From the NCBI GenBank assembly GCA_963708025.1, contig CAVPSB010000034.1, forward strand, positions 1-64,000: a stretch of 64,000 bases of DNA. The letters are read 5' to 3'. The translations under genes and the position numbers were made by a program. Shown piece by piece: positions 11,452-62,270 of this stretch. Within the stretch, counting starts at the first letter, position 1, and each line of letters begins with the position of its first letter. Source of the stretch: an uncultured Candidatus Rokubacteria bacterium (GTDB lineage: Bacteria > Methylomirabilota > Methylomirabilia > Rokubacteriales > DASRDR01). Under the pieces are notes generated by a model. The model saw only the letters and a list, made by a program, of their open reading frames with translations. It ran no database searches and was not told the DNA's origin.

Positions 11452-11670
11452 CCGTGCCGATAACCTTCGCCTTCTCCATCTCGGTCGTGACGCGCTCGGC
11501 CTGCGTCGATCGGACGGCCTTCGGCCTGGGGGCGTCCGTCCCGACCTACGGTCGTCCTCGGCCCGCGCCCATCCTCGGCGTACCAGGGCGTACGCCTCCG
11601 GTGGGCGCGGGCCTGCGTCGATCGGACGGCCTTCGGCCTGGGGGGGCTGCTCGGTTCTCGGCCCGGCTAC
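11449..11670 (+). repeat. Repeat family B copy carrying two M modules
   Basis: CATCTCGGTCG..GACGCGCTCGGCCT...ATCCTCGGCGTAC..GTACGCCTCCGGT...GCTGCTCGGTTCTCGGCCC; aligns with the copies at 15090, 22351 and 62122. Confidence 0.85.
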
Positions 11671-11683
11671 TCGCGGGTCACGC

Positions 11684-12760
11684 ATGATTTACCGCGAGGC
11701 GGGGCAGTTCAAGACGAGCTACGCGACCGACCAGGCGATCTTCCCGATCGCCCAGGACCGCTGGATCGTGCTGACCGCCGTGGCCGTCGCCTTCGTGGTC
11801 CCCCCGCTGATCGCCAGCGAGTACTGGCTGCAGGCCATCCTGATCCCGTTCCTGATCTACTCGCTGGCGGCGATCGGGCTGAACCTCCTCACCGGCTACG
11901 CCGGCCAGCTCTCGCTGGGCACCGGGGGCTTCATGGCGGTGGGGGCGTACAGCGCCTTCAAGCTCACCACCGCCTTCCCGGCGGTCAACGTCCTGGTGGT
12001 CTTCCTGCTGGCCGGCCTCATCGCCGCCGGCGTCGGCGTGCTGTTCGGCCTGCCCAGCCTCCGGATCAAGGGGTTCTACCTGGCGGTGGCGACGCTGGCC
12101 GCCCAGTTCTTCCTCACCTGGCTCTTCAACAAGGTCGCGTGGTTCGTCAACTACGCGCCGTCGGGCACGATCACCGCGCCGCCGCGGAGCCTCCTCGGCG
12201 TGATGCTCACGGGGCCGGCGGCGACCGCGCCCGTGCGGTACCTGGTCGCGCTGAGCTTCGTCACGGTCTTCGCGCTGGCCGCCAAGAACCTGGTGCGCGG
12301 CCGGGTCGGTCGCTCCTGGATGGCAATTCGCGACCGGGACATCGCCGCCGAGATCATCGGCATCCGGCCGCTGCGTACCAAGCTCGCCGCCTTCGCCATC
12401 AGCTCGTTCTACTGCGGGGTGGCCGGGGCGGAGTTCGTCTTCCTCTACCTGGGGAGCGCCGAGACGCTGGCCTTCGACGTCGGCCTGTCGTTCCTCGTGC
12501 TCTTCATGATCATCATCGGCGGCCTGGGCTCGATCCTCGGCTCGTTCCTCGGCGCCGCCTTCATCATCCTGCTCCCGATCCTCCTCACCCGGGCCCCCCA
12601 CCTGGTGGGCCTCGACCTGCCCGTCGCGCTCCAGAAGCACCTGGAGCTCATGGTCTTCGGCGGGCTGATCATCTTCTTCCTGATCGTCGAGCCGCAGGGC
12701 CTGGCGCGCCTGTGGCAGATCACGAAGGAGAAGCTGCGACTCTGGCCGTTCCCCCACTAA
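11684..12760 (+). CDS. Liv-type ABC permease (LivM-like)
   Basis: GLNLLTGYAGQLSLG, LRIKGFYLAVATLA, MIIIGGLGS. Confidence 0.93.
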   Translation: MIYREAGQFKTSYATDQAIFPIAQDRWIVLTAVAVAFVVPPLIASEYWLQAILIPFLIYSLAAIGLNLLTGYAGQLSLGTGGFMAVGAYSAFKLTTAFPAVNVLVVFLLAGLIAAGVGVLFGLPSLRIKGFYLAVATLAAQFFLTWLFNKVAWFVNYAPSGTITAPPRSLLGVMLTGPAATAPVRYLVALSFVTVFALAAKNLVRGRVGRSWMAIRDRDIAAEIIGIRPLRTKLAAFAISSFYCGVAGAEFVFLYLGSAETLAFDVGLSFLVLFMIIIGGLGSILGSFLGAAFIILLPILLTRAPHLVGLDLPVALQKHLELMVFGGLIIFFLIVEPQGLARLWQITKEKLRLWPFPH

Positions 12761-12780
12761 CGCGACACAAGGAGGCAACC

Positions 12781-14106
12781 ATGAGAGCACGACTGCTTCT
12801 GACCGGCCTGATGGTCATTCTGGCCGTCGTCGGCGGGCTGGCCGTCTCGGCCCCGGCCCAGGACAAATCGGTCTTCATCCCGTTGCTGGTGTACCGGACG
12901 GGACCGTTCGCTCCCAGCGGCGTCCCCATCGCCAACGGGTTCGCCGACTACTTCACGCTGGTGAACGAGCGGGACGGCGGGATCAACGGGGTGAAGCTCG
13001 TCTGGGAGGAGTGCGAGACCCAGTACGACACCAAGCAGGGCGTCGAGTGTTACGAGCGGCTCAAGAACAAGGGCGGCGGCGCCATCCTCGTCAACCCCTA
13101 CAGCACCGGCATCACCTACCAGCTCATCCCGAAAGCCCCGGTGGACAAGCTCGTCGTGTTCTCGATGGGCTACGGCATGAGCGCCTCGTCCGACGGCCGG
13201 TGGTTCCCCTGGGTGTTCAACTTCCCGACGAACTACTGGAGCCAGGCGTCGGCCGTCATCCGGTACATCGGACAGCAGGAGGGCGGGCTGGACAAGCTCA
13301 AGGGCAAGAAGATCGTTCACGTCTTCCACAACAGCCCCTACGGCAAGGAGGCGAACCCGACCCTCGAGACCCTTGCCCAGAAGTACGGCTTCGACCTGAC
13401 GCTGCTGCCGGTTGACAGCCCGGGACAGGAGCAGAAGGCGACGTGGCTCCAGGTGCGCCGGCTCAACCCCAACTGGATCTTCATGTCCGGGTGGGGCGTC
13501 ATGAACCAGGTGGCGGTCAAGGAGGCGGCGGGCATCGGCTTCCCGATGGACCACTTCATCGGCAACTGGTGGTCGGCGAGCGAGGCCGACGTGGTCCCGG
13601 CCGGTGACGGCGCCCGCGGTTACAAGGGCGCCACGTTCCACGCCCCCGGCGCCGGCTTCAAGGTGCACGACGACATCTTCAAGCACGTTTACGACAAGGG
13701 GAAGGGCGCCGGCGAGAAGGCCCGGGTCGGCGAGGCCCTCTACAATCGCGGGGTGGTCAACGCCATGTTCTCGATCGAGGCCCTCCGGACCGCGATGGCC
13801 AAGTTCGGCAACAAGCCCCTCACCGGCGAGCAGGTCCGGTGGGGCTTCGAGCACCTGAACCTCACCGACAAGCGGCTCGAGGAGCTGGGCATGAAGGGCT
13901 TCACCCACCCGGTGAAGGTGTCGTGCGAGGACCACGAGGCGAGCGGACCGGTCCTCGTCCAGCAGTGGGACGGCAAGAAGTGGAACCTCGTCTCCGAGTT
14001 CATCGCCCCGATGCGGGAAGTCGTCCGCCCGAAGCTCGAGGAGGCCGCCATCGAGGAGGCCAAGAAGCTCGGCTACCAGATGCGGGACTGCTCCAAGGAG
14101 GGCTGA
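12781..14106 (+). CDS. Liv-type ABC substrate-binding protein (copy 1)
   Basis: AGGAGG SD, signal peptide, YRTGPFA, GGINGVKL, type I periplasmic-binding pattern. Confidence 0.93.
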   Translation: MRARLLLTGLMVILAVVGGLAVSAPAQDKSVFIPLLVYRTGPFAPSGVPIANGFADYFTLVNERDGGINGVKLVWEECETQYDTKQGVECYERLKNKGGGAILVNPYSTGITYQLIPKAPVDKLVVFSMGYGMSASSDGRWFPWVFNFPTNYWSQASAVIRYIGQQEGGLDKLKGKKIVHVFHNSPYGKEANPTLETLAQKYGFDLTLLPVDSPGQEQKATWLQVRRLNPNWIFMSGWGVMNQVAVKEAAGIGFPMDHFIGNWWSASEADVVPAGDGARGYKGATFHAPGAGFKVHDDIFKHVYDKGKGAGEKARVGEALYNRGVVNAMFSIEALRTAMAKFGNKPLTGEQVRWGFEHLNLTDKRLEELGMKGFTHPVKVSCEDHEASGPVLVQQWDGKKWNLVSEFIAPMREVVRPKLEEAAIEEAKKLGYQMRDCSKEG

Positions 14107-14220
14107 GAGAGCGTGAGGGGAATGGGGCTTCCGGCTCCCCCCTCCCCCCAGTGGGTGGGGGAGGGGGGCCAAAGGCCGAAGGCCGTCGAAGGATCGGGTA
14201 GGCGGGAGGTCCCGAATTGA
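14104..14220 (+). repeat. Repeat family A copy 1
   Basis: TGAGAGAGCGTGA...CTCCCCCCTCCCCCC..GGGTGGGGGAGGGGGG-[M]-GGGTAGGCGGGAGGTCCCGAATTGA. Confidence 0.9.
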
Positions 14221-14261
14221 GTCAACCACCGGAGGGGGGCATCGCCCCCCTCCGGTTGACT
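14219..14261. repeat. GC-rich hairpin (family D-like)
   Basis: GAGTCAACC-ACCGGAGGGGGG...CCCCCCTCCGGTTGACTC. Confidence 0.6.
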
Positions 14262-14276
14262 CCCTCGGGAGAGGCC

Positions 14277-15092
14277 GTGAGCGACGGCGACAAGCCGATC
14301 CTGTCCGTCAACAACATCGAGGTCATCTACGACCACGTGATCCTCGTGCTCAAGGGCGTTTCCCTCCACGTCCCCGACGGCGGCATCGTCGCCCTGCTCG
14401 GCGCCAACGGGGCGGGGAAGACCACCACGCTCAAGGCGATCTCCGGCCTGCTGCGGACCGAGCGCGGGGAGGTGACCAAGGGTAGCATCGAGCTCCTCGG
14501 CCGGCTGATCCACCGGGACAGCCCCGACGGGATCGTCCGCCAGGGCATCGTGCAGGTGATGGAGGGGCGCCGGGTCTTCGAGCACCTCACGGTGGAGGAG
14601 AACCTGCTGACCGGCGCCTACACGCAGAAGAACGGCCACTCGATCCGCCGGGACCTGGAGCGGGTCTACGGCTACTTCCCCCGGCTCGCCGAGCGCCGGA
14701 GCGTGCGGGCCGGCTACACGTCGGGGGGCGAGCAGCAGATGCTCGCCATCGGCCGGGCTCTCATGGCCCACCCCCGGCTGATGCTCCTCGACGAGCCCTC
14801 CATGGGGCTCGCCCCGCGGCTGGTCGGGGAGATCTTCGAGATCGTCGCCCGGCTGAACCGGGAGGAGCACCTCACCGTCCTCCTGGCCGAGCAGAACGCC
14901 GCGATGGCGCTGCGATTCGCGGGGTACGCCTACGTGATGGAGAGCGGCCGGATCGTCCTGGACGGTGACGCCCGGACGATCAGCCAGAACGAGGACATCA
15001 AGGAGTTCTACCTGGGGCTGACCGGGGTGGGGCAGCGCAAGAGCTACCGAGATGTGAAGCACTACAGGCGCCGCAAGCGCTGGCTCTCGTAG
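14277..15092 (+). CDS. Liv-type ABC ATP-binding protein (LivF-like, copy 1)
   Basis: GANGAGKT, TSGGEQQMLAIGRALM, LLDEPSMGLAP, KEFYLG; start at GTG 14277 after the repeat. Confidence 0.93.
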   Translation: MSDGDKPILSVNNIEVIYDHVILVLKGVSLHVPDGGIVALLGANGAGKTTTLKAISGLLRTERGEVTKGSIELLGRLIHRDSPDGIVRQGIVQVMEGRRVFEHLTVEENLLTGAYTQKNGHSIRRDLERVYGYFPRLAERRSVRAGYTSGGEQQMLAIGRALMAHPRLMLLDEPSMGLAPRLVGEIFEIVARLNREEHLTVLLAEQNAAMALRFAGYAYVMESGRIVLDGDARTISQNEDIKEFYLGLTGVGQRKSYRDVKHYRRRKRWLS

Positions 15093-15315
15093 GGGGCAGG
15101 GCCGATGAGCTTCGCAACGTCCATCTCGGTCGGGACGCGCTCGGCCTACGCCGTTCGGACGGCCTTCCGCCTTTGGGCGTCCATCCCGACCTATGGTCGT
15201 CCTCGGTCGTCGCCCATCCTCGGCGTATGCGGCATACGCCTGCGGTCGGCGACTCCCTGCGTCCCTTGGACGGCCTTCGGCCTTTGGGCGCTGCTCGCTC
15301 CTCGGCCCTGCCCCC
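15090..15315 (+). repeat. Repeat family B copy carrying two M modules
   Basis: GGGGCAGGGCCGATGAGC...GCTGCTCGCTCCTCGGCCCTGCCCCC terminal stem with nested stems. Confidence 0.9.
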
Positions 15316-15368
15316 GAGAATGTGGACCCATCTGCGATGGCGTTGAAGCTCGAGTTTAGCGAAGCGGA

Positions 15369-16178
15369 TTGCTCGTGAGCGGTGAGGGGGTCGGGTTGCT
15401 GGAAGTCCAGGGGTTGTCGAAGCACTTCGGCGGTGTTCAGGCCGTGAGCGGTGTCGATCTCGTGATCGGGGAGCGCGATCTGCTCTCCGTCATCGGGCCG
15501 AACGGCGCCGGCAAGACCACCCTGCTCAACGCCGTCAGCGGCATCCTCCCGGCCGACGGAGGCCGGATCGTGTTCCGCGGCGAGGACATCACCCGGCTCC
15601 CGGCCCATGCGATCGCCCGGCGGGGGATCGCGCGGACGTTCCAGAACGTGGCGCTCTTCCGCGGCATGACCGTCATCGACAACCTGATGCTGGGCCGGCA
15701 CATCCACGTCCGCTCGAACCCGTTCGCGGCCGCACTCTACTGGGGGCCGGGCCGCCGCGAGGAGGTGCGCCACCGGGCGGTGGTCGAGGACGTCATCGAG
15801 TTCCTCGAGATCGAGGCGATCCGCAAGGCGATCGTCGGGAGCCTGCCGCTCGGCCTCCAGAAGCGGGTGGAGCTCGGCCGGGCCCTGGCCGTCCAGCCGC
15901 GACTCCTCCTGCTCGACGAGCCGATGGGCGGCATGAACGTCGAGGAGAAGGAGGACATGGCCCGGTTCGTCCTCGATGTCCACGACGAGTGGAGGATCTC
16001 GGTCGTCCTGATCGAGCACGACATGGGCGTGGTCATGGACATCTCGCAGCGGGTGGTCGTGCTGGACCTCGGCCAGAAGATCGCCGAGGGGACGCCCGAC
16101 GAGGTCCGGGCCCATCCCCGGGTGATCCGGGCCTATCTGGGGGCGAAGGGTGTGGCTTCCGCCGGAGCTGCCCGGTGA
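15369..16178 (+). CDS. Liv-type ABC ATP-binding protein (LivG-like, copy 2)
   Basis: GPNGAGKT, LPLGLQKRVELGRALA, DEPMGGMN; exact start uncertain. Confidence 0.92.
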   Translation: MLVSGEGVGLLEVQGLSKHFGGVQAVSGVDLVIGERDLLSVIGPNGAGKTTLLNAVSGILPADGGRIVFRGEDITRLPAHAIARRGIARTFQNVALFRGMTVIDNLMLGRHIHVRSNPFAAALYWGPGRREEVRHRAVVEDVIEFLEIEAIRKAIVGSLPLGLQKRVELGRALAVQPRLLLLDEPMGGMNVEEKEDMARFVLDVHDEWRISVVLIEHDMGVVMDISQRVVVLDLGQKIAEGTPDEVRAHPRVIRAYLGAKGVASAGAAR

Positions 16179-18109
16179 GCGACCCGCGATCGTCGTCGGG
16201 ATCCCCGGCGGGCGAGTCCGACACGCTGGTCAAGCGCTTCGTGGCGCTGGCTCGTGCCCACCCCGGGCGCCCCGCCATGCGGGAGCGGGAGAAGGGGATC
16301 TGGCGGCAGTACACGCGGGCGGAGGCGCTCGGCCACGTGCGCGCGCTCGCGCTCGGGCTCCACTCGCTGGGGCTGAGCCGCGGCGACAAGGTGGCGATCA
16401 TCAGCGACAACCGGCCGGAGGCATACTGGATGCTCTACGCGATCCAGGCGGTGGGGGCGGTGCCCGTCCCCGTCTACCAGGACGCGATCGCCCGGGAGGT
16501 CCAGTACGTCATCGACCACGCCGACGCCCGGTTCGTCCACGCCGAGGACCAGGAGCAGGTCGACAAGGTGCGGGAGGCGCGGGCCGGACTTTCCCGGGTC
16601 GAGCGGGTCTTCTACGACGATCCGAAAGGGCTCCGCGACTACGACGACGCGTGGCTCATGGCCCTGGCCGACCTCGAGCGGCGCGGCCGGGAGATCGACG
16701 CGGCGCGGCCCGGTCTGTTCGACGAGCTGCTGGCCGCCGGCCGGGCGGACGACGTCGCGATCATCTGCTACACGTCGGGGACCACCGGCGCCCCCAAGGG
16801 GGCGATGCTGACCCACGCGAACCTGATCGCCTCGGCCCGCCAGTTCCTGCAGCGCGAGCGGCTCGAGGAGGGGGACGAGCTGGTCTCCTACCTGCCGCTG
16901 GCCTGGATCGGGGAGCTCGCCTACTCGGTGGCGCTCGCCTGCCTGGCCGGCCTGACGATCAACTTCCCGGAGGAGCCGGAGACGGTTCTCGACAACATCC
17001 GGGAGATCGGCCCGCACCTCGTCCTGGCGCCGCCGCGCACGTGGGAGAACAGCTACTCCCAGATCCGCGTGCGGATCGACGACTCGACGTGGCTCAAGCG
17101 CCGGATCTTCGAGGCCTTCATGCCAGTCGGCGAGGAGGTGGCGCGGCGGAAGATGGAGCGGCGGCCGGTGCCGCTCGGACTCCGGCTCCGGTGGCTGCTC
17201 GGCGAGGTGTTCCTGTTCGCCCCGCTCCGGGACCAGCGGGGAGCCCGGCGGGCGCGCTACGCCTTCACCGGGGGCGCCCCGCTGGCGCCCGAGATCATCG
17301 GCTTCTACCGGGGCCTCGGGGTGAACGTCAAGCAGGTCTACGGCCAGACCGAGAACTGCGCGTTCTGCTGCGGCCAGCCCGACGACGCCGTGAAGCTCGG
17401 GACCGTCGGCGTCCCGTTCCCGGGAGTCGAGCTGCGGCTGACCGAGGAGGGCGAGATCTGCTCGCGGGGGCCCACGGTCTTCGCCGGTTACTACAAGAAC
17501 GAGGAGGCCACCCGTGCCGTGATCCGGGACGGCTGGCTGTACTCGGGGGACGCCGGCTTCCTCGATCCCGACGGCCAGCTCGTGGTGGTCGACCGGCTCA
17601 AGGACGTGACCCGGCTGGCCGACGGGACGACGCTCGCCCCCCAGTTCATCGAGAACAAGCTCAAGTTCAGCCCGTACGTCCGGGAGGCGGTGGTCGTCGG
17701 TCCTGACCGCCCGTTCGTGGCCGCGCTCGTCAACATCGACATGGAGACGGTCGGCAAGTGGGCCGAGCGACGCCAGCTCACCTACACGACCTACACCGAC
17801 CTCGCCCAGAAGCCGGAGGTCTACGACCTCGTCCAGCGCGAGGTCGAGCGGGTCAACCGGGACCTGCCGGCGGCCACCCGGATCCGGAGGTACGTGCTCC
17901 TCCACAAGGAGCTGGACCCGGACGACGAGGAGATCACCCGGACCCGGAAGCTCCGGCGGGGGGTGATCACGCGGAAGTACGGGCCGATCATCGAGGCCCT
18001 GTACGAGGAGGTGCCCCTGGTGGCGGTCACCGCCGAGGTGACCTACCAGGACGGCCGCAAGGCCGTGACCGAGACGAAGCTCGCCATCCGCACGGTCAAG
18101 GGGGACTGA
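16175..18109 (+). CDS. Long-chain acyl-CoA ligase, ABC-transporter-associated (copy 2)
   Basis: GTGA overlap start; YTSGTTGAPKG, YGQTE, LHKELDPDDEEITRTRKLRR; paralog of 7651-9609. Confidence 0.93.
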   Translation: MSDPRSSSGSPAGESDTLVKRFVALARAHPGRPAMREREKGIWRQYTRAEALGHVRALALGLHSLGLSRGDKVAIISDNRPEAYWMLYAIQAVGAVPVPVYQDAIAREVQYVIDHADARFVHAEDQEQVDKVREARAGLSRVERVFYDDPKGLRDYDDAWLMALADLERRGREIDAARPGLFDELLAAGRADDVAIICYTSGTTGAPKGAMLTHANLIASARQFLQRERLEEGDELVSYLPLAWIGELAYSVALACLAGLTINFPEEPETVLDNIREIGPHLVLAPPRTWENSYSQIRVRIDDSTWLKRRIFEAFMPVGEEVARRKMERRPVPLGLRLRWLLGEVFLFAPLRDQRGARRARYAFTGGAPLAPEIIGFYRGLGVNVKQVYGQTENCAFCCGQPDDAVKLGTVGVPFPGVELRLTEEGEICSRGPTVFAGYYKNEEATRAVIRDGWLYSGDAGFLDPDGQLVVVDRLKDVTRLADGTTLAPQFIENKLKFSPYVREAVVVGPDRPFVAALVNIDMETVGKWAERRQLTYTTYTDLAQKPEVYDLVQREVERVNRDLPAATRIRRYVLLHKELDPDDEEITRTRKLRRGVITRKYGPIIEALYEEVPLVAVTAEVTYQDGRKAVTETKLAIRTVKGD

Positions 18110-18227
18110 GAGTCGATGAGGGAGTCGATTTTTTCCGCACCCCCCTCCCCGGCCAGCCAAAGGCCGCAGGACATCCAACGGTGGGGGAGGGGGACCAGGG
18201 TGAGGAGGGCGGGAGGTCCCCAAATAG
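18107..18227 (+). repeat. Repeat family A copy 2 (diverged)
   Basis: TGAGAG...CCCCCCTCCCC-[M variant]-GTGGGGGAGGGGG...GGCGGGAGGTCCCCAAATAG-ATG. Confidence 0.8.
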
Positions 18228-19112
18228 ATGGAGTTCTTCTTCCAGCTCGTCCTCAACGGCCTGATGGTCGGCGCGCTCTACACGCTGATCGCGATGGGGT
18301 TCGTGCTCATCTACAAGGCGAGCGAGGTCATCAACTTCGCCCAGGGCGAGCAGGTCATGATCGGCGGCTACCTGGCCCTCATGATGCTGTCGTCCGTCCG
18401 GCTCCCCCTGCCGCTGGCCATCCTGGCCACCATGGGGGTGATGGCGCTGCTCGGCTTCGTCGTGGAGCGCGGGATCCTCCGGCCGCTGACCGGCTACCCG
18501 GTGGTGTCGGTCATCATGGCGACGATCGGGCTGGCCGCCATCTTCCGGGGCGTGGCGCCGCTGGTCTGGAGCGCCGAGGTGAGGGGGTTTCCGGCCATCG
18601 TCCCGGCGACCCCGATCCGGGTGCTGGGCGTCCCCCTGGCGCCGATCAACCTGGCCTCGGCCGGGCTGGCGTTCGTCTGCATGGCGGTGCTGGGCTACTT
18701 CTTCCAGCGGACGCGCTTCGGCGTCGCGATGCGCGCCGTTTCCGACGATCCGAAGGCGGCGGCCGCGATGGGGATCGACCTGCGGACGATCCTGGCCCTG
18801 GCCTGGGCGATTGCCGGCATGGTGTCCGCGCTGGGCGGCGTGATCTGGGGACGGATCCTGGGGGTGGACCCGTACCTCGCCATCGTGGGGCTCAAGGTGT
18901 TCCCCGTGGTCATCCTCGGGGGCCTGGACTCGATCATGGGGGCGGTCGTCGGCGGCTTCATCATGGGGGTGCTCGAGAACCTGGCCGCCGGGTACATCGA
19001 CCCCCTGGTGGGCGGCGGCGCCAAGGACGTCGTGCCGTTCGTCGTGCTGATCGTCGTCCTCATGGTCCGGCCGTACGGCCTCTTCGGCCGGGAGATCATC
19101 GAGCGTGTGTGA
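18228..19112 (+). CDS. Liv-type ABC permease (LivH-like, copy 2)
   Basis: YTLIAMGFVLIYKASEVINFAQGE; RPYGLFGREIIERV. Confidence 0.93.
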   Translation: MEFFFQLVLNGLMVGALYTLIAMGFVLIYKASEVINFAQGEQVMIGGYLALMMLSSVRLPLPLAILATMGVMALLGFVVERGILRPLTGYPVVSVIMATIGLAAIFRGVAPLVWSAEVRGFPAIVPATPIRVLGVPLAPINLASAGLAFVCMAVLGYFFQRTRFGVAMRAVSDDPKAAAAMGIDLRTILALAWAIAGMVSALGGVIWGRILGVDPYLAIVGLKVFPVVILGGLDSIMGAVVGGFIMGVLENLAAGYIDPLVGGGAKDVVPFVVLIVVLMVRPYGLFGREIIERV

Positions 19113-19134
19113 ACCGGGCCGGTAGTCTGGTTCG

Positions 19135-20199
19135 ATGCTAGCAAGGGAGTGCGGCGTCTTCCGGACCACCTACGCGGCCGACATGGCCGTCTACCAGCTC
19201 CCGCTCGCCCGCTTCGGCCTGGTCGGCCTCCTCATCGTCGTCTTCGGCGTCGTCCCGGCGCTGGCCACGGAGTACGCGCTCTCCGTCCTGAACCTGGTCG
19301 GCATCGCCTCCATCGGCGCCATCGGCCTCAACCTGCTGGTCGGGTTCGCCGGCCAGATCTCCCTCGGCCAGGGCGGCTTCATGGCCATCGGGGCGTACAC
19401 CGCTGCCCTCTTCGCCCTCCGCCTCGGCGCGCCGTTCTGGGTCGCCCTGCCGGCGGCCGGGCTGGTGACGGCCGCGGTCGGCTGCCTGTTCGGCATCCCG
19501 TCGCTCCGCGTCAAGGGGCTGTACCTCGCGATCGCCACGCTGGCCGCCCAGTTCATCATCGAGTGGAACCTGCTCCACTCCGGCTGGCTCACGGGGCAGG
19601 GGGCCCAGGGCGCCCTGGTCATCGAGCCGGCCGCCATCGGACCCTGGGTGCTCGAGACCGAGCGGCGCAAGTACTACCTCATCATGGTGGTGGCGCTGGT
19701 GGCCACGGTCGTCGCCCGCAACATCACCCGGACCTATCTCGGCCGGGCGTTCGTGGCCATCCGCGACCAGGACATCGCCGCCGAGACCATGGGCGTCGAC
19801 ATCTTCCGATACAAGCTCCTGGCCTTTGCCGTCTCGTCGTGCTACGCCGGCATCACCGGCGCCATGTGGGCCTACTACACCCAGGTGGTCAGCTACGAGC
19901 ACTTCCTGATCAGCACCTCGATCGACTACCTGGCGATGATCATCATCGGCGGCCTCGGCTCGGTGCCCGGATCGATCCTGGGGGCCGCCTTCATCACCCT
20001 GATGCCGGCCGGGATCCGGGACGGCCTGGAGTTCCTGAAGCGCCTGGGCCTCCCGGGGACCCTGGGCAACTTCTCGTATGCCCGGGAGATCATCTTCGGG
20101 CTCGTGATCGTGCTGTTCCTGATCTTCGAGCCCGAGGGGCTCTACCGGATCTGGCGGCGGGTCAAGGACTATTTTCGCCTCTGGCCCTTCGCGTACTGA
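19135..20199 (+). CDS. Liv-type ABC permease (LivM-like, copy 2)
   Basis: GLNLLVGFAGQISLG, LRVKGLYLAIATLA, FEPEGL. Confidence 0.93.
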   Translation: MLARECGVFRTTYAADMAVYQLPLARFGLVGLLIVVFGVVPALATEYALSVLNLVGIASIGAIGLNLLVGFAGQISLGQGGFMAIGAYTAALFALRLGAPFWVALPAAGLVTAAVGCLFGIPSLRVKGLYLAIATLAAQFIIEWNLLHSGWLTGQGAQGALVIEPAAIGPWVLETERRKYYLIMVVALVATVVARNITRTYLGRAFVAIRDQDIAAETMGVDIFRYKLLAFAVSSCYAGITGAMWAYYTQVVSYEHFLISTSIDYLAMIIIGGLGSVPGSILGAAFITLMPAGIRDGLEFLKRLGLPGTLGNFSYAREIIFGLVIVLFLIFEPEGLYRIWRRVKDYFRLWPFAY

Positions 20200-20244
20200 C
20201 GAGGCCGAGTGCAGCAACCTGACCGAACAGAGGAGGACAGCACG

Positions 20245-21453
20245 ATGAAGCGCTGGCTCGTGGGCTCCTGCCTGATCGTGGCCGTGCTCGCCCTGGGGGT
20301 GTCGGTGGCCGTCACCCAGGGCAAGGTCCTGAAGATCGGCAACTTCTGCGACCGGCTGGGCCCGACGCAGACGATCGGCGTCAAGTACTGCGTCGGCTTC
20401 CACGACTACATGGACCTGATCAACTCGCGCGGCGGTGTCGACGGCTGGAAGATCGAGCACAACGAGATCGAGCACGGCTACGCCGTGCCGAAGGCGGTCG
20501 ACGGGTACAACAAGTTCAAGTCCGAGGGGTACCTCGCCCTGGTGAGCTACGGGACCCCCATCACCGACGCGCTCAAGACCTTCGCCAACCGCGACAAGAT
20601 CAGCCTGCTCACGCCCGGGTTCGGGATCTCGGACGTCGAGGACCCTACCAAGTTCCCCTACGTGTTCGTCGGCGTGGCCGCCTACAAGGCGCAGGTGGCC
20701 GCCATCTACCAGTACATCAAGGAGGCGTGGAAGGAGAAGCGGGCGGCCAAGGTCGCCTACCTCTTCTACGACAACCCGGCCGGGCGCGATCCCATGGACT
20801 ACGTCCGGGAGCTGCCCAAGAAGCTCGGCAACATGGAGCTGGTCGGCGAGGTGGCCTGCTCGCCGCCCTGCGCCGAGGCCAGCTCCCAGATGCTGCAGCT
20901 GGCCCGGCTCAAGCCCGACTTCATCATCTCGCACCTGTTCGGAAAGGGGCCGACGCTGACCGTCCAGGAGAAAGCCAAGCATGACGACCTCAAGAACACC
21001 ACCATGATCAGCCTGGTGTGGGGCTTCAGCGAGGACGAGGTCAACGTCAACGGCCCCCTCGCCGAGGGCTACATGGGCGTGAACTTCGTGGTCATGCCCG
21101 AGGACCTGGCCAAGCTCCCCGTCCACAAGGATGTCGTGGACATGTACAAGAAGGCGGGGAAGGAGCCCCCGAAGGAGATGGGCTCGATCTACTACGTCCG
21201 CGGCATCATGAACGGGGCGCTCCTGGTCGAGGCCGCCAAGCACGCGATCAAGGCGGCCGGCGGCGGAGCGGTGACCGGGGAGCACTTCAAGAAAGGGATG
21301 GAGTCGATCAAGGACTTCACCGGCGAGGGGACGATGTCGCCGACGACCATCACGGCGTCGAACCACGCCGGCTCGCGGAAGGTCCGGCTCTACAAGGTGC
21401 AGGGCGGCAAGTTCGCGCTGGTGAAGGACTGGTTCGAGGGGCCGCATCTGTAG
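20245..21453 (+). CDS. Liv-type ABC substrate-binding protein (copy 2)
   Basis: AGGAGG SD, signal peptide MKRWLVG..., INSRGGVDGWKI. Confidence 0.9.
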   Translation: MKRWLVGSCLIVAVLALGVSVAVTQGKVLKIGNFCDRLGPTQTIGVKYCVGFHDYMDLINSRGGVDGWKIEHNEIEHGYAVPKAVDGYNKFKSEGYLALVSYGTPITDALKTFANRDKISLLTPGFGISDVEDPTKFPYVFVGVAAYKAQVAAIYQYIKEAWKEKRAAKVAYLFYDNPAGRDPMDYVRELPKKLGNMELVGEVACSPPCAEASSQMLQLARLKPDFIISHLFGKGPTLTVQEKAKHDDLKNTTMISLVWGFSEDEVNVNGPLAEGYMGVNFVVMPEDLAKLPVHKDVVDMYKKAGKEPPKEMGSIYYVRGIMNGALLVEAAKHAIKAAGGGAVTGEHFKKGMESIKDFTGEGTMSPTTITASNHAGSRKVRLYKVQGGKFALVKDWFEGPHL

Positions 21454-21455
21454 AA

Positions 21456-21551
21456 CCCCTCGTCCCTCTCGTCTCCGGGAGAGGGTCACGGTGAGGGCCG
21501 GCGTCCGACGGGGAACCCTCACCCGGCCCTCTCCCTGGAAGGGAGAGGGAG
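21456..21551. repeat. REP-like double hairpin (family C)
   Basis: CCCTCTC..GGGAGAGGGTCACGGTGAGGG...CCCTCACCCGGCCCTCTCCC.TGGAA.GGGAGAGGG, placed directly after the SBP stop. Confidence 0.75.
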
Positions 21552-21558
21552 CGGAAGC

Positions 21559-22350
<792 letters not shown>

Positions 22351-22353
<3 letters not shown>

Positions 22354-22668
22354 GGGCGGGGCCGATGAGCTTCGCAATGTTCGTCTCGGTCGGCGACATC
22401 CTCGGCGCTGCGGCATACGCCTCCGGTGGGCGACTCCTGCGTCCTAGCGCTGCTCGCTCCTCGGCCCGCCGCGCGAGCATCGACCGTACCCTTCCGGATC
22501 CGAAGGGGGCCGATGAGCGTCGCAACGTCCTCGGTCGGGACGGCGGCCTACGGCCTCGCGGCCGTCCCGACCTATGGCGTCCTCGGTCGTCGCCGATCCT
22601 CGGCCCGGAGTACGCCTCCGGTCGGCTCTCCCTGCGTCCTAGCGCTGCTCGGGTCTCGGCCCGGCGCC
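22351..22668 (+). repeat. Two tandem family B units lacking the M module
   Basis: Units ~22355-22470 and ~22504-22668, each GGGGCCGATGAGC...CTGCGTCCTAGCGCTGCTCG...TCGGCCC. Confidence 0.85.
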
Positions 22669-22682
22669 GGAAGCTGAGCGGC

Positions 22683-23186
22683 GTGGCTGAGCTGCGCATC
22701 GAGACGCGGGAGGATGGCTCGGTGGTGCTCACCGATACCACTGGCCGGCGGTGGGGTGTCGCGGCGGCGGGTGTCGTCGGCGGCGGGTGGCTGCTGGGGA
22801 GCCTGGCGACGGCCGGGCTGACCCTGGTCGCCGCCGTGGTCACGGGACCGATCGCCCTCATCGCCATCCTGGCCGGCGTCGCCGCCGCCCGGCATCGGGA
22901 CTGGATCGTCTTCGACCGCCAGGGGCGGGAGATCGTCTTCCGCCGCGGCCTCGTCGCGATGTTCCGGTCGGTCTCGGCGGTGCCGTTCGACGAGGTGGAG
23001 GCGATCCTCGTCGAGGAGCCGGAGACGACCGGCGGGCTCGCCGAGGTCTCCCTCCGCCGGGCCGGCGACTTCGTGTGGCCGATCGACGCCAGCGCTGATC
23101 CGGCGTACGTGCGGCGGCTGGCGGCTGCGCTCGCCGAGGTCGGCGGCTGGCCGGTGGTCCGGGAGCGGGAGGCGGTCCGTCGGTGA
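22683..23186 (+). CDS. Hypothetical membrane protein (two TM segments, soluble C-terminal domain)
   Basis: GTG start after the repeat; hydrophobic hairpin; GTGA overlap with the next gene. Confidence 0.7.
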   Translation: MAELRIETREDGSVVLTDTTGRRWGVAAAGVVGGGWLLGSLATAGLTLVAAVVTGPIALIAILAGVAAARHRDWIVFDRQGREIVFRRGLVAMFRSVSAVPFDEVEAILVEEPETTGGLAEVSLRRAGDFVWPIDASADPAYVRRLAAALAEVGGWPVVREREAVRR

Positions 23187-24232
23187 CGGAGCGGCTTCCG
23201 CTCCTTCCCACCTCGGTCGTCGGCAGCCACGCGCTGCCCGGCTGGCTGGTCCTCGGACGGGAGGCCGAGACGGCCGGCCGGCTGGGGCCGGCGGACCGCC
23301 GCGAGCTGATCGAGGACGCGACCCGCATCGCGCTGCTGGATCAGATCGAGGCCGGCGTCGACGTCCCGGCCAACGGCGAGATGGGCCGCGAGAACTTCAC
23401 CCTTGGCTTCTTCGGCCGGCTGGCCGGGCTCCGCGCCCTCCCGGCGCCCCGCCGGCTCGGGGTGCCGAGCTACGACGTCCATCCGCCGTACGAGGTGGTC
23501 GAGCAGGTGTCGGCGCCCGAGGGCCTCGGGCTCGCCGAGGAGTGGCGCATGACCCGGCGGCTCACCCAGCGGCCGCTCCGGGCGACATGCCCCGGCCCGT
23601 TCACGCTGGCCATCCCGCTCCGCCACGCCGGTGGTCCCTACCGGGATCGGGCGACCCTGCTGGCCGACCTGGCCGACGTCGTCAACGCCGAGCTGCGGGC
23701 CCTCGTCGACGCGGGCGCCGACTTCATCCAGGTGGACGAGCCGAACTTCGTCATGCTGCGCGGCGCCGACGCCCGGGAGCGGGTCGAGCTGTTCAACCGG
23801 ACCGTGGCCGGTGTGCTGGCGAAGATCGCGCTCCACGTCTGCTTCGGGAACCTCTACAACAGACCCTTCGCGACGCCGCGGGAGTACCGGCCGCTGTTCC
23901 CCGCGCTCCTCGACGCGCGCTGCCAGCAGCTCGTCTTCGAGTTCGCCAGCCGCGAGATGGCCGAGATCGAGTTGATGAAGGAGGTGGGCGACCGCGAGGT
24001 GGCCGTCGGCGTGATCGACGTGAAGGCCTACCGGGTCGAGACGCCGGAGGAGGTGGCCACCCGGATCCGGCGGGCGCTCGAGCACGTGCCCGTCGGGCGG
24101 CTGTGGATCGTTCCCGACTGCGGCTTCTGGGCGACCCCGCGACCCGCGGCGGTGGCGAAGCTCCGCGCCATGGTGGCCGGGACCCGCCTCGTCCGCGACG
24201 AGCTGGCCGCCGGGCCCGGGCTGGGAGGCTGA
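23183..24232 (+). CDS. Cobalamin-independent methionine synthase II family (MetE C-terminal-like, Zn)
   Basis: TSVVGS, IQVDEP, HVCFGN, FEFA, VPDCGF (His/Cys/Glu/Cys Zn ligands). Confidence 0.88.
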   Translation: MTERLPLLPTSVVGSHALPGWLVLGREAETAGRLGPADRRELIEDATRIALLDQIEAGVDVPANGEMGRENFTLGFFGRLAGLRALPAPRRLGVPSYDVHPPYEVVEQVSAPEGLGLAEEWRMTRRLTQRPLRATCPGPFTLAIPLRHAGGPYRDRATLLADLADVVNAELRALVDAGADFIQVDEPNFVMLRGADARERVELFNRTVAGVLAKIALHVCFGNLYNRPFATPREYRPLFPALLDARCQQLVFEFASREMAEIELMKEVGDREVAVGVIDVKAYRVETPEEVATRIRRALEHVPVGRLWIVPDCGFWATPRPAAVAKLRAMVAGTRLVRDELAAGPGLGG

Positions 24233-24999: not shown

Positions 25000-25006
25000 G
25001 AACATC

Positions 25007-25090
25007 GGGGGGGTCTCGGAAGACCCCCCCGAGGCCCCCCCGCGGAGGCCGCGACTGTTCGACGGCCTTCGGCCTGTGGGCCGCGGCTCG
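25007..25090. repeat. Family D G/C hairpin followed by an M module
   Basis: CGGGGGGGTCTCGGAAGACCCCCCCG...TTCGACGGCCTTCGGCCTGTGGG. Confidence 0.7.
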
Positions 25091-25192
25091 AAGTGGAACG
25101 CCGCGACCGCGGGGCAGAGCCGGAGGGTTGCGAGAAACCGACGGGCGGCGGAAATCGATCCGCGGGCATCCAGAGGGCGAGGGGGGTTCAGC

Positions 25193-26143: not shown

Positions 26144-26277
26144 GAGCGTGTGAAACCGTCGGTACCTCCGACTCCCCCCTCCCCCCGGCCACAGGCCGAA
26201 GGCCGTCCAACAATAGGGGAGGGGGGCAAAAGGCCGAAGGCGGTCGAAGGATCGGGTGGGCGGGAGGTCCCGATTGA
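26141..26277 (+). repeat. Repeat family A copy 3 (two M modules)
   Basis: TGAGAGCGTGTGA...CCCCCCTCCCCCC-[M]-GGGGAGGGGGG-[M]-GGGTGGGCGGGAGGTCCCGATTGA. Confidence 0.9.
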
Positions 26278-26286
26278 GGTGAGACC

Positions 26287-27561: not shown

Positions 27562-27599
27562 CACCAGGACTGACACCCGTTCACTCGATTGCGTACCGC

Positions 27600-27692
27600 G
27601 TCCCTCCGGCCCCCCCCTCCCCCGGCCACAGGCCGAAGGCCGTCCAACAGTGGGGGAGGGGGGGTTGGGGGGAGGGAGGGAGGTCTCAAATG
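27600..27692 (+). repeat. Repeat family A copy 4
   Basis: CCCCCCCTCCCCC-[M]-GTGGGGGAGGGGGGGTTGGGGGGAGGGAGGGAGGTCTCAAATG. Confidence 0.85.
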
Positions 27693-28628: not shown

Positions 28629-28678
28629 AACGCGGCGCAATACGTGGGAATCGCGGACGAAATCGCGGCACAAACTCC

Positions 28679-28708
28679 TTGACGGGCCGGGTCGCCGGCC
28701 ATCAGAAT
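28679..28708 (+). promoter_or_regulatory. Sigma70-type promoter heading the PKS/lipid cluster
   Basis: TTGACG-18 nt-CAGAAT, 9 nt before ATG 28718. Confidence 0.55.
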
Positions 28709-28717
28709 AAGGGCTCA

Positions 28718-29557: not shown

Positions 29558-29598
29558 GTCGTGGCCCGCCGGCCGCGCACGCTCTCCGAGCGGACGGC

Positions 29599-32820: not shown

Positions 32821-32954
32821 GCGCGCTGCGACAATTCACTCCGCCGGTCCACCCCTCCCCCCAGCCAAAGGCTGAAGGCCGTCGAAGGGTGGGGGAAGGG
32901 GGCCAAAGGCTGAAGGCCGTCGAAGAATTGGGTGGGAGGGAGGTCCCGAACTGA
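32818..32954 (+). repeat. Repeat family A copy 5 (two M modules)
   Basis: CCCCTCCCCCC-[CAAAGGCTGAAGGCCGTCGAA]-GGGGGAAGGGGG-[same]-GGGTGGGAGGGAGGTCCCGAACTGA. Confidence 0.88.
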
Positions 32955-32956
32955 GG

Positions 32957-40464: not shown

Positions 40465-40578
40465 GGGCGTGTGAAGGAATGGGTTCCTCCGACTCCCCCC
40501 TCCCCCCGGTGGGTGGGGGAGGGGGCCAAAGGCCGAAGGCCGTCGAACGGTCGGGGTAGGCGGGAGGTCACCAAATAA
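40462..40578 (+). repeat. Repeat family A copy 6
   Basis: TGAGGGCGTGTGAAGGAATGGG...CCCCCCTCCCCCCGGTGGGTGGGGGAGGGGG-[M]-GGGTAGGCGGGAGGTCACCAAATAA. Confidence 0.9.
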
Positions 40579-40580
40579 CC

Positions 40581-53781: not shown

Positions 53782-53783
53782 CC

Positions 53784-55429: not shown

Positions 55430-55430
55430 G

Positions 55431-56540: not shown

Positions 56541-56596
56541 GCTATAGTTCCGTTACGTTTCCGTTACGCCACCCCCGACGGCAAGGAGGCCGACTG

Positions 56597-57625: not shown

Positions 57626-57718
57626 GCCGCGTATGGGCGTAGCACCGGCAAGCGGGGGTGGGTGCCCGGGCCGAGGTACTGACCGGACAATCCCGCCTCG
57701 CTTGCCGGAGCCGGGCCC

Positions 57719-59917: not shown

Positions 59918-59931
59918 GATAGGGAGGGATC

Positions 59932-61008: not shown

Positions 61009-61019
61009 CCGCCCGACCC

Positions 61020-61349
61020 ATGATATCGAGGCACTGGAAGGGTGTTGCGAGGCCGGGACAGGCCGAGCGATACATCGCTCACCTCGAGGGCGACACGTTT
61101 CCCGGCCTCTCCCGAATCCCCGGCTTGGTCAGCGCCTCGATCCTGAGGCGAGAGGTCGATGCCGGCACCGAGTTCGAGGTCATCACCGTGTGGGAGTCTT
61201 GGCAGGCGATCCGGGCCTTCGCGGGTGAGACGGCCGAGACGGCCGTCGTGCCGCCACTCGTCCAGGCCATGATGGTGGACTACGATCGGCACGTGGTGCA
61301 CTACGAGATCGCCGGGACCTACGCGCCGCCCCGGCCGGTCCAGGGCTGA
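61020..61349 (+). CDS. Antibiotic biosynthesis monooxygenase-like (dimeric alpha-beta barrel) protein
   Basis: MISRHWKG...EFEVITVWESWQAIRAFAG..AVVP...VVHYE. Confidence 0.8.
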   Translation: MISRHWKGVARPGQAERYIAHLEGDTFPGLSRIPGLVSASILRREVDAGTEFEVITVWESWQAIRAFAGETAETAVVPPLVQAMMVDYDRHVVHYEIAGTYAPPRPVQG

Positions 61350-61368
61350 GCCAGCCAGCATCCGGGTC

Positions 61369-62124
61369 ATGCGACTCGAGGGTCGGTCGGCGATCGTGAC
61401 GGGCGCGGCCAGCGGCCTGGGCCGCGGCATCGCTCGCGCGCTGGCGGCGGAGGGCGCCCGGGTCGCGATCCTCGACGTCGACGAGCCGGGCGCGGCGCAG
61501 ACGGTGGAGCTGATCCGGGATGCCGGGGGCGCCGCGGTGGCCCACCGGACCGACGTGACCCGGCGCGCCGACGTCGAGAGCGCCGTCAACGACGTCCTGA
61601 TGCGCTGGGGTGCGGTGAACGTCCTCGTCAACAACGCAGGGTGGGACCGCCCGATGCCGTTCCTGGAGACCGACGAGGCCTTCTGGGACCGGATCCTCGC
61701 CCTGAACCTCAAGGCGCACTTCCACCTGGCCCAGGTGGTGCTGCCGCACATGATCGGCCAGGGCGGCGGGAAGGTCGTGGCGATCGCCTCGGACGCCGGG
61801 CGCGTCGGGTCGTCCGGCGAGGCCGTCTACTCGGCGGCCAAGGGCGGGGTCATCGCGTTCACCAAGACGCTCGCCCGCGAGATGGCCCGCCACCGGATCA
61901 ACGTGAACTGCGTCTGCCCGGGGCCCTCGGAGACGCCGCTCTTCCAGAGCGAGTTCAGCGCCGGGAAGCCGGGGCTGGCCGACGCGCTGAAGAAGGCCAT
62001 TCCCTGGGGCCGCCTCGGCACGCCGGAGGACGTGGCCGGCGCCGTCGTCTTCCTCGCCTCCGACGAGGCCGACTTCATCACGGGCCAGACCCTCTCCGTC
62101 TCCGGCGGCCTGACCATGGTGTAG
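61369..62124 (+). CDS. SDR, BadH-like (hydroxyacyl-CoA dehydrogenase)
   Basis: NNAGWD, SDAGRVGSSGEAVYSAAKGG, VCPGPSETPL, SVSGGLTM. Confidence 0.88.
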   Translation: MRLEGRSAIVTGAASGLGRGIARALAAEGARVAILDVDEPGAAQTVELIRDAGGAAVAHRTDVTRRADVESAVNDVLMRWGAVNVLVNNAGWDRPMPFLETDEAFWDRILALNLKAHFHLAQVVLPHMIGQGGGKVVAIASDAGRVGSSGEAVYSAAKGGVIAFTKTLAREMARHRINVNCVCPGPSETPLFQSEFSAGKPGLADALKKAIPWGRLGTPEDVAGAVVFLASDEADFITGQTLSVSGGLTMV

Positions 62125-62270
62125 CGGGCGGGGCCGATGAGCGTCGCATCGCGTCGTCCTCGGTCGTCGCCGATCCTCGGCGTACTAGGAGTACGCCTGC
62201 GATCGGCGACTCCCTGCGTCTGTCGGACGGCCTTCGGCCTGTGGGCGCTGCTCGCTCCTCGGCCCCGCTG
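62122..62270 (+). repeat. Repeat family B copy with one M module
   Basis: GCGGGGCCGATGAGC...ATCCTCGGCGTACTAGGAGTACGCCTGCGATC...[M]...GCTCGCTCCTCGGCCCCGC. Confidence 0.88.

Follow-up and report, generated by a model that had tools for sequence, protein, structure and literature searches.

How does a hairpin of 21 nucleotides come to be present in some copies of unrelated intergenic repeats and absent from others? The question is raised by a stretch of 64,000 nt from an uncultured Candidatus Rokubacteria bacterium (GenBank assembly GCA_963708025.1, contig CAVPSB010000034.1, positions 1 to 64,000; hereafter the window, G000:C34:1-64000), in which an earlier note had picked out a GGCC-GAA-GGCC mini-hairpin nested optionally within hairpin repeats. 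We call this module M (CCAMAGGCCGAAGGCCGTCSR). The assembly comprises 8.17 Mb in 49 contigs with 71% G+C (70-76% in the window) and is 99.67% complete, with a stated contamination of 8.18%. We suggest, with a probability of about 45%, that M is an optional sub-module of mosaic intergenic repeats in one lineage of Rokubacteriales, similar to boxB and to the repetitive extragenic palindromes (REPs), and that it owes its spread to passive transport with the carriers, and to short-patch repair, to recombination and to slippage at the tips of hairpins.

A discrete 21-nt unit repeated across the genome

The core GGCCGAAGGCC occurs 10 times in the window, with 0.17 expected, and none of 100 shuffles reaches 10. 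The exact core at 42382 is a chance match and not a module, as it lies within a gene and lacks the conserved flanks. Copies were collected with the 22-mer CCANAGGCCGAAGGCCGTCNNA in a fuzzy search allowing up to 3 substitutions. The search recovers all 14 window copies reported in the earlier note, on the strands implied there, and finds 620 copies genome-wide: 327 with no substitution, 192 with one, 68 with two and 33 with three. The size of the unit, put at 22-24 nt in that note, is exactly 21 nt, as given by the gap lengths of the slots described below and by the 21-nt period of tandem arrays. Its phase is set by tandem doublets (for example, the copy C18:429430). M may also be read as two AAGGCCG heptamers, and arrays of 10-nt half-units are found in addition to the 21-nt ones.

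The GAA/TTC loop tops all GGCC-NNN-GGCC forms of the genome (634 sites vs 333 for the runner-up). The position profile of 633 core sites is conserved from -5 to about +16 and falls steeply outside. The core is conserved at 97-99%, and the arms of the carriers are conserved equally well. According to a crude home-made gene caller, 591 of the 620 copies are intergenic; most of the 29 ‘coding’ copies lie in the first or last 10% of open reading frames (ORFs) which the caller extended over the repeat.

M is present on 36 of the 49 contigs, including 31 of the 32 contigs longer than 50 kb, and its density on the M-bearing contigs of this size is 2-17 copies per 100 kb. Contig C30 (111 kb) and 12 shorter contigs have no M. 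Some of the M-free contigs may derive from another organism, because of the stated contamination of the assembly.

The impression that M occurs only inside other repeats, formed on the window, extends to the whole genome: for 590 of 620 copies, one or both 45-nt flanks recur at least 3 times elsewhere, and for 390 both do. The remaining 30 are mostly diverged host copies or chance matches with 3 mismatches. Neighbouring modules lie on the same strand, with 172 same-strand pairs within 130 nt vs 2 opposite-strand pairs within 300 nt. Rfam shows no family at gathering score in the window and no match with E<=1 in 11400-15400. The sequence of M was not found in print, where the 11-mer turned up only as chance or primer text. 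Our literature search found no description of these repeats, and nothing on Rokubacteria in connection with intergenic sequence and coding density.

Three unrelated carriers with six fixed slots

The 16-nt flanks of M fall into 87 context groups, the top ten of which hold 460 copies. Flank consensus and alignments resolve three main carriers, families A, B and C; the rarer contexts are variants or chimeras of these.

Family A is a C-rich/G-rich hairpin, CCCCCCTCCCCCC ... GGGGGAGGGGGG, with slot A1 in the loop and slot A2 immediately past the G arm. Its tail GGATCGGGTGGGCGGGAGGTCCCGAA adjoins the next start codon. The family is sense to its neighbours: of 63-66 copies, 47-54 are placed in sense orientation between co-directional genes. 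There are about 435 family A loci genome-wide. The element begins at or beside the upstream stop codon (TGAGAGCGTGTGAAGGAATGGG...), and at its 3′ end a GGGAGG resembling a Shine-Dalgarno sequence is followed by a stop codon in one frame or another and by the next start codon. In their layout these elements look like mobile intercistronic spacers that would carry their own ribosome-binding site. At G000:C2:216086-216612 six family A hairpins form a tandem array, about 100 nt apart.

Family B resembles a MITE, a miniature transposable element with inverted repeats, and is closed by terminal inverted repeats (GGGGGCGGGGCCGAGGAGC...). Slots B1 and B2 flank the central hairpin, and an optional segment (54 nt, counted on the alignment) holds slot B3. 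The family is mainly antisense to the flanking genes, and its right end adjoins a stop codon. By eye, each of its indels (21, 21, 21 and 54 nt) is divisible by three, and some frames are open. We considered family B as a protein-coding repeat and rejected this, since open frames are expected at 71% GC, stops occur in various frames and the element is antisense to the operon. In family C, likewise antisense, a hairpin GAGCCGCGGC-x-GTCGCGGCCTC precedes runs of G and C. M itself is sense in family A and antisense in B and C, so the opposite orientations noted before in A and B are confirmed. The pair CTGCGTC-[module]-GCGCTG and CTGCGTC-CTA-GCGCTG, filled and empty, is also found as described.

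In the slot counts, copies were anchored on the carrier flanks only, at unique loci. Slot B1 has 0, 1 and 2 M at 89, 76 and 5 loci (modal gaps 3, 24 and 45 nt), and slot B3 at 62, 46 and 3 loci (7, 28 and 48-49 nt). Slot A2 has them at 105, 67 and 7 loci (4, 25 and 46 nt). For slot A1 the numbers are 305, 129 and 1, with modal gaps of 7 and 28 nt for the empty and single states. Slots B2 (120 and 57 loci) and C (85 and 34 loci) contain no double fillings, and the modal gap in both is 3 nt when empty and 24 nt when filled. In all six slots, spread over three unrelated families, a filled copy is 21 nt longer than an empty one and a doubly filled copy 42 nt longer. The variants of M are partly slot-specific. 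No target-site duplication is seen at the six slots, and M has no terminal repeats beyond its 4-bp stem, so that it does not look like a MITE itself. In our best reading M is not an autonomous transposon.

Slot state is nearly unlinked to the carrier copy

The earlier note proposed host-repeat trees as a check for independent gains. We built a maximum-likelihood tree of 131 family B carriers from 112 nt, with the slots and the optional segment removed. On this poorly resolved tree the B1 state changes 35 times (shuffled labels 43.0 +/- 2.9) and the B2 state 35 times (36.9 +/- 2.3). The optional segment, used as internal control, changes 26 times (39.5 +/- 2.5). The slot state is near-random on the tree, and a single gain followed by deletions fails to explain it. 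Five identical family B carriers show three different combinations of slot states, and every combination is found within the family. Across 21 variable columns of the carrier we saw no association with the state of either slot (|phi| <=0.21). Slot state is thus almost unlinked to the phylogeny of the host copies and to their single-nucleotide polymorphisms (SNPs). Since there is no linkage to SNPs ~12-30 nt away, either the conversion tracts would have to be very short or gain and loss are specific to M.

Some carriers are joined through a single M. The left arm, M and the right part of B3 are combined at C10:147761, C33:18323 and C15:291279, and the left arm, M and the right side of B2 at C13:687861. 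The arrangement of these single-M chimeras indicates that they are products of M-M recombination.

Empty slots in relatives and the ancestral state

The 15-mer AGGCCGAAGGCCGTC occurs 501 times in this genome and 7-68 times per genome in 14 of 15 genomes of the sister genus g5. The five other genera of the family and 20 genomes of the order have 0-1 per genome, and the reversed-pattern control gives 0-1 in every genome. Within the Rokubacteriales examined, M is confined to this genome and one sister genus. Among metagenome relatives of one window gene, 1 of 80 loci has an M-like 15-mer (<=1 substitution), and none of them is a strain-level relative.

An adapter, a chimera or another artefact of assembly, allowed for in the earlier note, is a negligible explanation of this pattern, and we found nothing in its support. 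The exact 15-mer recurs in those 14 independently assembled genomes far above the control, the module is seen in the unrelated metagenome contig L093, and in this genome it occupies fixed positions in structured repeats between intact genes.

The carrier is more widespread than the module. The terminal repeat of family B is enriched in M-less genera (55 vs 5 control matches in G002, 34 vs 10 in G005), and the genera g2, g3 and g6 hold family B with 0-1 M 15-mers. None of 30 family B copies fetched from G001, G002 and G005 has M. In 25 of the 30, read by eye from the printed rows, B1 has a 3-nt filler TAG, CAG, AAG or GGG. Where these copies reach far enough, B2 reads GAG and B3 reads GAGGCCG, just as in the empty slots of this genome. 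Because M-less genera carry family B with identical empty fillers, the empty slots are ancestral and M is a derived addition.

The opposite history, one ancestral gain of M with deletions at all presently empty sites, is very improbable. B1 and B2 are positively associated (in copies without the optional segment 38 have neither M, 22 both, 12 only B1 and 12 only B2), and B1 shows a weak signal on the tree; both are what a single gain would leave. Against it, the M-less sister genera have the same empty fillers, M is found in at least 6 slots of three unrelated families, and the empty fillers cannot be derived from the filled state by deletion. A close relative also has an orthologous family A copy that is empty. 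The occupancy is combinatorial rather than inherited from one filled ancestor.

In the M-less genera other hairpin modules are nested in the central loop of family B, for example one of roughly 60 nt in six copies of G002 (L035, L041, L044, L047, L056 and L059); further cases are L031 and L046 in G001 and L033 and L039 in G005. It follows from these modules that nesting on this carrier is a general habit across the bacterial family. Family A is near-specific to this genome, with 247 pattern matches here, 8 in G010, 1 in G001 and 0 in 18 others.

Change in place at orthologous sites

Two metagenome contigs are syntenic with window positions 23-27.5 kb: L119 with 86-91% nucleotide identity and L091 with about 80%. 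The family C element at 25000..25192 (minus strand), with M at its hairpin tip at 25058..25079 (minus strand; fuzzy search and predicted fold), is missing from the orthologous junction in both, where the short-chain dehydrogenase/reductase (SDR) and luciferase-like genes are 16 nt apart (counted on the alignment). The family A element at 26144..26286 (plus strand) has both slots filled, A1 at 26189..26210 and A2 at 26227..26248, the latter with 2 substitutions, both on the plus strand. Its orthologue in L119 has both slots empty, and L091 has no family A element upstream of 26287.

In the 76%-identical relative L093, an M-like unit lies at ~4655-4760, in the spacer after the orthologue of the 26287-27561 gene. 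The arm order there is G-rich first and C-rich second, the reverse of the window family A hairpin at 27600-27670.

In the sister genus we compared, in 14 genomes, one junction at which the stop of one gene and the start of a GTPase gene share the letters GTGA. Six loci have no M (L072 among the M-less). Three loci (L061, L065 and L066) have M in frame as (PQAEGRP)n, with 4, about 5 and 1 units, respectively. In the other five, half-units with M, or a degenerate M, are followed by a tail of ~30 nt which ends at or just before the GTGAGC start; for L062, L068 and L073 we determined the frames by eye. The (PQAEGRP)n heptapeptides lie at the N-terminus of a conserved GTPase-like protein, whose orthologues in six other genomes do not have them.

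Elsewhere in the sister genus, M with a ~30-nt tail is inserted between an upstream-stop [AG]TGA(GC) and a constant GTGAGC start (g5 loci L002, L008, L009, L014, L017, L018, L025, L026 and L029). Inserts of different length, 16-37 codons, all end on the stop/start overlap. They reflect either a TGAGC target duplication or an element that brings its own start codon.

Fold, reading frames and a possible signal

In the predicted fold of M, a GGCC stem of 4 bp closes a GAA (or TTC) triloop. Its calculated energy as DNA is only -3.4 kcal/mol for the GAA strand and -3.5 kcal/mol for the TTC strand, and about -6 as RNA, in a nearest-neighbour model that has no special term for the G-N-A loop, a loop type known for extraordinary thermal and nuclease stability. 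Among carrier-anchored copies C-GAA-G is present in 226 of 247, and a G-N-A loop closed by C:G in 237 of 247. In the predicted folds of families A, B and C the module forms its own branch at a hairpin apex or at a junction. We saw no compensatory changes in the stem of M, which hardly varies.

M spans 7 codons, and all six of its frames are free of stops. Reading frames across M vary in this genome. Of 14 sister-genus contexts, 9 are mini-ORFs from [AG]TGA to [AG]TGA (about half by chance), 2 end with TAG and 3 run on. A length that is a multiple of three and the lack of stops fit the intercistronic setting, as well as the sister-genus inserts, whose behaviour may resemble that of mycobacterial interspersed repetitive units (MIRUs).

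These features may also be viewed as those of a selected cis-acting signal, a protein-binding site, an RNA-processing or stabilising hairpin or a palindrome-stabilising spacer, which the carriers only deliver. We consider this unlikely. The conservation of the core and of the G-N-A loop, the position of sister-genus M on the sense strand directly past stop codons, the intergenic location of nearly all copies and the strong orientation of the carriers relative to genes speak for a signal, and the GGCC-N3-GGCC dyad could bind a dimer. Since M is sense in A and antisense in B and C, one strand-specific RNA role cannot cover all copies. Moreover, roughly half or more of the copies at each slot have no M, close relatives do not have it at orthologous sites, and nothing in Rfam matches. 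The carrier arms are as conserved as M, and therefore its conservation may reflect youth alone.

Candidate enzymes and possible active writing

The earlier note suggested a search for co-distributed HUH/RAYT (REP-associated tyrosine transposase) or reverse-transcriptase genes, and this search turned up no partner. Y1_Tnp (PF01797, RAYT/IS200) is not matched in this genome, while the control search detects it in 6 of 14 named genomes. Among relatives it is found in 9 of 15 sister-genus genomes and in none of the five other genera of the family. No M-like 15-mer lies within ~1.5 kb of six sister-genus Y1 loci. RVT_1 and TnpB-type genes have no matches in this genome. Other transposase families are present: DDE_Tnp_1 with 5 matches, rve with 3 and IS110 with 6 over the cut-off. 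None of seven IS110 matches is flanked by halves of M, and one of the seven has M within 3 kb. We therefore rejected RAYT as the mover of M, as there is no Y1_Tnp here and the sister-genus Y1 loci have no M nearby; writing by a reverse transcriptase, as RVT_1 is missing from the genome; and targeting of M by IS110.

The Y1-transposase-like gene of the sister genus is single-copy and encodes ~313 aa with a long C-terminal extension (L195 1459-2400 in G010, and five loci more). Among long sequences, the one most repeated in the genome under study is an element of ~1.56 kb, found at G000:C2:141254-142812 and in about 7 further copies (C13, C14, C15, C19, C28 and C37). It has no link to M. Its product, by eye, resembles what we take to be the HNH/DUF222 ‘13E12-type’ repeat proteins of actinobacteria.

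M could still be written into single-stranded hairpin loops, and perhaps removed from them, by a dedicated activity that such searches do not recognise, for example a loop-nicking nuclease with templated synthesis or an unrecognised recombinase. M would then be a second-level parasite. The exact unit size at fixed positions in at least 6 non-homologous slots agrees with such writing. So do a slot state that is in equilibrium with SNPs ~12-30 nt away and near-random on the carrier tree, the placement of M always at loops or junctions of the predicted folds, the restriction to two genera, the tandem arrays and the other modules nested in the family B loops of sister genera. However, searches of the genome richest in M found neither a Y1/HUH transposase nor a reverse transcriptase nor TnpB, M does not flank the sister-genus Y1 genes, and the IS110 copies are unassociated with it. 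The junctions are unclean and there is no target-site duplication. The slot-specific variants of M fit inheritance with the carrier rather than fresh insertion each time, and we know of no transposase-moved element as small as 21 nt. On balance active writing seems doubtful to us. It is still less probable that M is the smallest known bacterial mobile unit, a parasite of parasites in the form of a 21-nt hairpin precisely written into and removed from loops and stop/start overlaps. The proposal of a second-level selfish or recognition unit stands as far as M is a discrete, optional unit of the second level, and neither its selfishness nor a role as protein-binding tag has gained support.

Proposed mechanism

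We return to the reading of M as an optional sub-module of mosaic repeats, and suggest the following course of events. M was added to older, ancestrally empty spots that are probably single-stranded, the tips of hairpins and the junctions of helices. This happened in at least 6 slots of at least 3 unrelated carriers, and in the sister genus also at stop/start overlaps of genes. Most of the ~620 copies would be owed to the multiplication of the carriers.

Flips between filled and empty states occur often and independently of the carrier, most likely via short-patch, template-directed repair or recombination at hairpin tips, where other copies of the repeat could serve as the template. Replication slippage may add the tandem 21-nt arrays and the 10-nt half-units, and recombination between two modules may delete or join carrier segments, with mosaics as the result. 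M would be tolerated everywhere because it folds on its own (GGCC stem and C-GAA-G triloop), has exactly 7 codons and is stop-free in six frames. The data show the unit and its slots, their ancestral emptiness, change in place, the missing linkage to the carrier, the arrays, the M-M deletions and the lack of the usual enzymes; the route by repair or recombination, the neutrality of M and the way in which it would first enter a new slot are inferred.

Several points weigh against this reading. In most slots a filled copy departs from an empty one not only by M but also in the 1-5 nt on its 3′ side, so that there is no clean indel; the 3′-junction bases are TAG vs ATG/AAG in B1, GAG vs AAC in B2 and TTC vs ACA in C. 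Only a subset of A1 copies shows a clean-looking 21-nt insertion, GG|TGGGT to GG[M]TGGGT. Ordinary gene-conversion tracts of at least 50 bp should tie slot state to SNPs ~12-30 nt off, a tie that is not seen, and the poor resolution of the 112-nt carrier tree inflates the counts of changes. The arrays, the chimeras and the in-place flips are accounted for, but homologous repair gives no explanation of how M enters a new slot that is not homologous. Neutrality is assumed, and the core conservation of 97-99% fits youth but also selection. Finally, the lack of Pfam-recognisable enzymes does not exclude an unrecognised one, and the stated contamination of the assembly is 8.18%.

The spread of very small repeats in bacteria has long been an open question, and M provides an unusually clean test case: the unit is exact, filled and empty copies run into the hundreds at each of six slots, the outgroups are empty, change is seen in place and the usual enzymes are missing. 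It allows a quantitative approach to the question whether sequence is moved between repeats by short-patch repair at the tips of hairpins. It also illustrates how repeats inside operons can do no harm if they contain no stop, have a length divisible by three and fold on their own. In practice, assemblies of high-GC Rokubacteriales genomes break at these modules and at the repeats that carry them, and gene callers are misled by both.

Copies in the window

The genes of the window form ordinary operons (branched-chain amino-acid ATP-binding cassette (ABC) transporters, fatty-acid synthesis and others), and the repeats occupy the intercistronic spacers. Apart from the pair of elements compared with relatives above, the following copies are present; all modules were located by fuzzy search unless another basis is given.

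Three family B loci are on the minus strand. The MITE-like element with terminal inverted repeats at 11452..11683 fills the spacer between two branched-chain amino-acid permease genes, antisense to both; it has M (CCCCAGGCCGAAGGCCGTCCGA) in the B3-type position at 11510..11531 and in the B1-type position at 11622..11643. The element at 15093..15345 includes the optional 54-nt segment and has a multi-branch predicted fold closed by the terminal inverted repeats, with M in slot B3 at 15155..15176 (1 stem substitution) and in slot B1 at 15266..15287. At 62223..62244 M fills slot B1 of a family B element whose slot B2 is empty.

Family A is represented by six elements in the window, with M on the plus strand in all of them. 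The element at 14107..14276, a C-rich/G-rich hairpin with the Shine-Dalgarno-bearing tail, extends from stop codon to next start codon on the plus strand and has M in slot A2 at 14169..14190, with slot A1 empty. The element at 18110-18227 has a degenerate M with 3 substitutions in slot A1 at 18157..18178. In the element at 27562-27689 slot A1 is filled at 27626..27647, where M forms an apical mini-hairpin in the predicted fold, and slot A2 is empty. Both slots of the element at 32821-32956 are filled with the GGCT stem variant, A1 at 32865..32886 and A2 at 32903..32924. In the element at 40465-40580 slot A2 is filled at 40526..40547 and A1 is empty.

Contigs of four soil runs from four studies, aligned to 11000-30999, are short and end at repeats. 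One soil contig over 27132-28054 has 26 gap letters, in tables that give no indel positions, and two others cease aligning at ~25000. The summed contig depth of these runs is 10-50x higher at 15002-15668 and 21672-22338 than elsewhere. These peaks are no property of the repeats, because the two intervals are ABC-transporter ATPase genes, on which conserved motifs of many organisms pile up.

Comparison with known systems

The closest analogue of M in organisation is boxB of the BOX elements of Streptococcus pneumoniae and S. suis, an optional internal module with 0, 1 or several tandem copies, which in S. suis is common to two different pairs of flanking modules (PMC3049150). It is predicted to fold independently from the remaining modules, which is read there as permitting absence or multiplication, and BOX elements are open in reading frames on both strands (PMC3049150). 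M is likewise optional and tandemly variable at fixed internal positions, with 0-2 units per slot and up to 4-5 in the sister genus, and it is common to different flanking modules (families A, B and C and further contexts). The differences lie in the placement and in the borders. According to the same text, boxB has one position between boxA and boxC, whereas M occupies at least 6 slots in at least 3 unrelated carriers, at hairpin tips; BOX elements have terminal inverted repeats with target duplications and a proposed insertion sequence (IS) partner, and M has neither (PMC3049150). Homology between boxB and M is not expected, because the organisms and the base composition are very different; the likeness is one of organisation. 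boxB is about twice as long as M.

Nested REPs provide a second parallel. GTAG-23 of T. roseum, GTAG-15 of A. variabilis and CGTC-1 of H. neapolitanus lie in the middle of longer palindromes, and in T. roseum hundreds of empty ‘target’ palindromes exist beside filled ones (PMC3733652). As with M, a small palindromic repeat is placed amid a longer one, and filled and empty hosts coexist. In the available part of PMC3733652 nesting is mentioned in passing, and neither unit-exact indels nor occupancy of several families is reported there. The nested REPs, as described in that part, have 6-13 bp stems, a GTAG/CGTC head and are often dimers, whereas the stem of M is 4 bp long and M has neither a canonical tag nor inverted partners.

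With 21 bp and 620 copies, 591 of them intergenic, M agrees with the REPs in being a short (20-40 bp), high-copy intergenic palindrome, although its stem is only 4 bp. The three other features tested are lacking in M: the layout of an unpaired GTAG or CGTC head, a 6-13 bp stem and a CCA-type tail at the far end (PMC3733652), inverted pairing, and a RAYT gene flanked by its REPs. We also tried to read it as a CGTC-tagged REP and rejected this: the order is mirrored (CCA-MA-GGCC-GAA-GGCC-GTC), with CGTC overlapping the 3′ stem arm and CCA on the 5′ side, and the stem is only 4 bp.

M shares with the E. coli-type REPs and bacterial interspersed mosaic elements (BIMEs), and with the REPIN-RAYT systems (REPINs being REP doublets that form hairpins), the high copy number of intergenic hairpins, the mosaic with other motifs and the location between co-directional or convergent genes (PMC3333891, PMC3116915). 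These systems, as far as the sections consulted describe them, have inverted partners, a RAYT and a longer stem, while M is found in same-strand pairs (172 vs 2), without RAYT and with a much shorter stem.

The dRS3 repeat of Neisseria is the integration target for a phage and for an IS110-type enzyme; unlike dRS3, M has no adjoining IS110 copies. In the mosaics of dRS3 (the CGTC-1 REP) and the neisserial intergenic mosaic elements (NIMEs), as in ours, a short repeat is interleaved with several other repeat families; in the account given there the dRS3 units flank the other repeats, whereas M sits in their loops (PMC3733652). MIRUs are intercistronic in operons, form variable tandem arrays, have open frames that overlap the neighbouring genes and show empty and filled orthologous sites (PMC3184786), and the M-bearing inserts of the sister genus may behave similarly. 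MIRUs are 40-100 bp long, number 40-50 per genome and, in the available text, are not nested in other repeats, in all of which M differs (PMC3184786).

At the level of the fold, the centre of M, C-GAA-G on a GGCC stem with G-N-A kept, resembles the d(GCGAAGC)-type mini-hairpins (PMC13037366, PMC3201870). Those are synthetic or phage-origin oligonucleotides, and the accessible portions of these papers mention no genome-wide repeat built on the motif (PMC13037366, PMC3201870). The statement of the earlier note that M is not a described element is accordingly right for the sequence, which we did not find in print, and goes too far for the kind, which is described in boxB (PMC3049150) and in the nested REPs (PMC3733652), to judge by the parts of these papers at hand. 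By its features M would therefore be filed not as a member of the REP/RAYT systems, and rather as a new and smaller variant beside boxB and the nested REPs.

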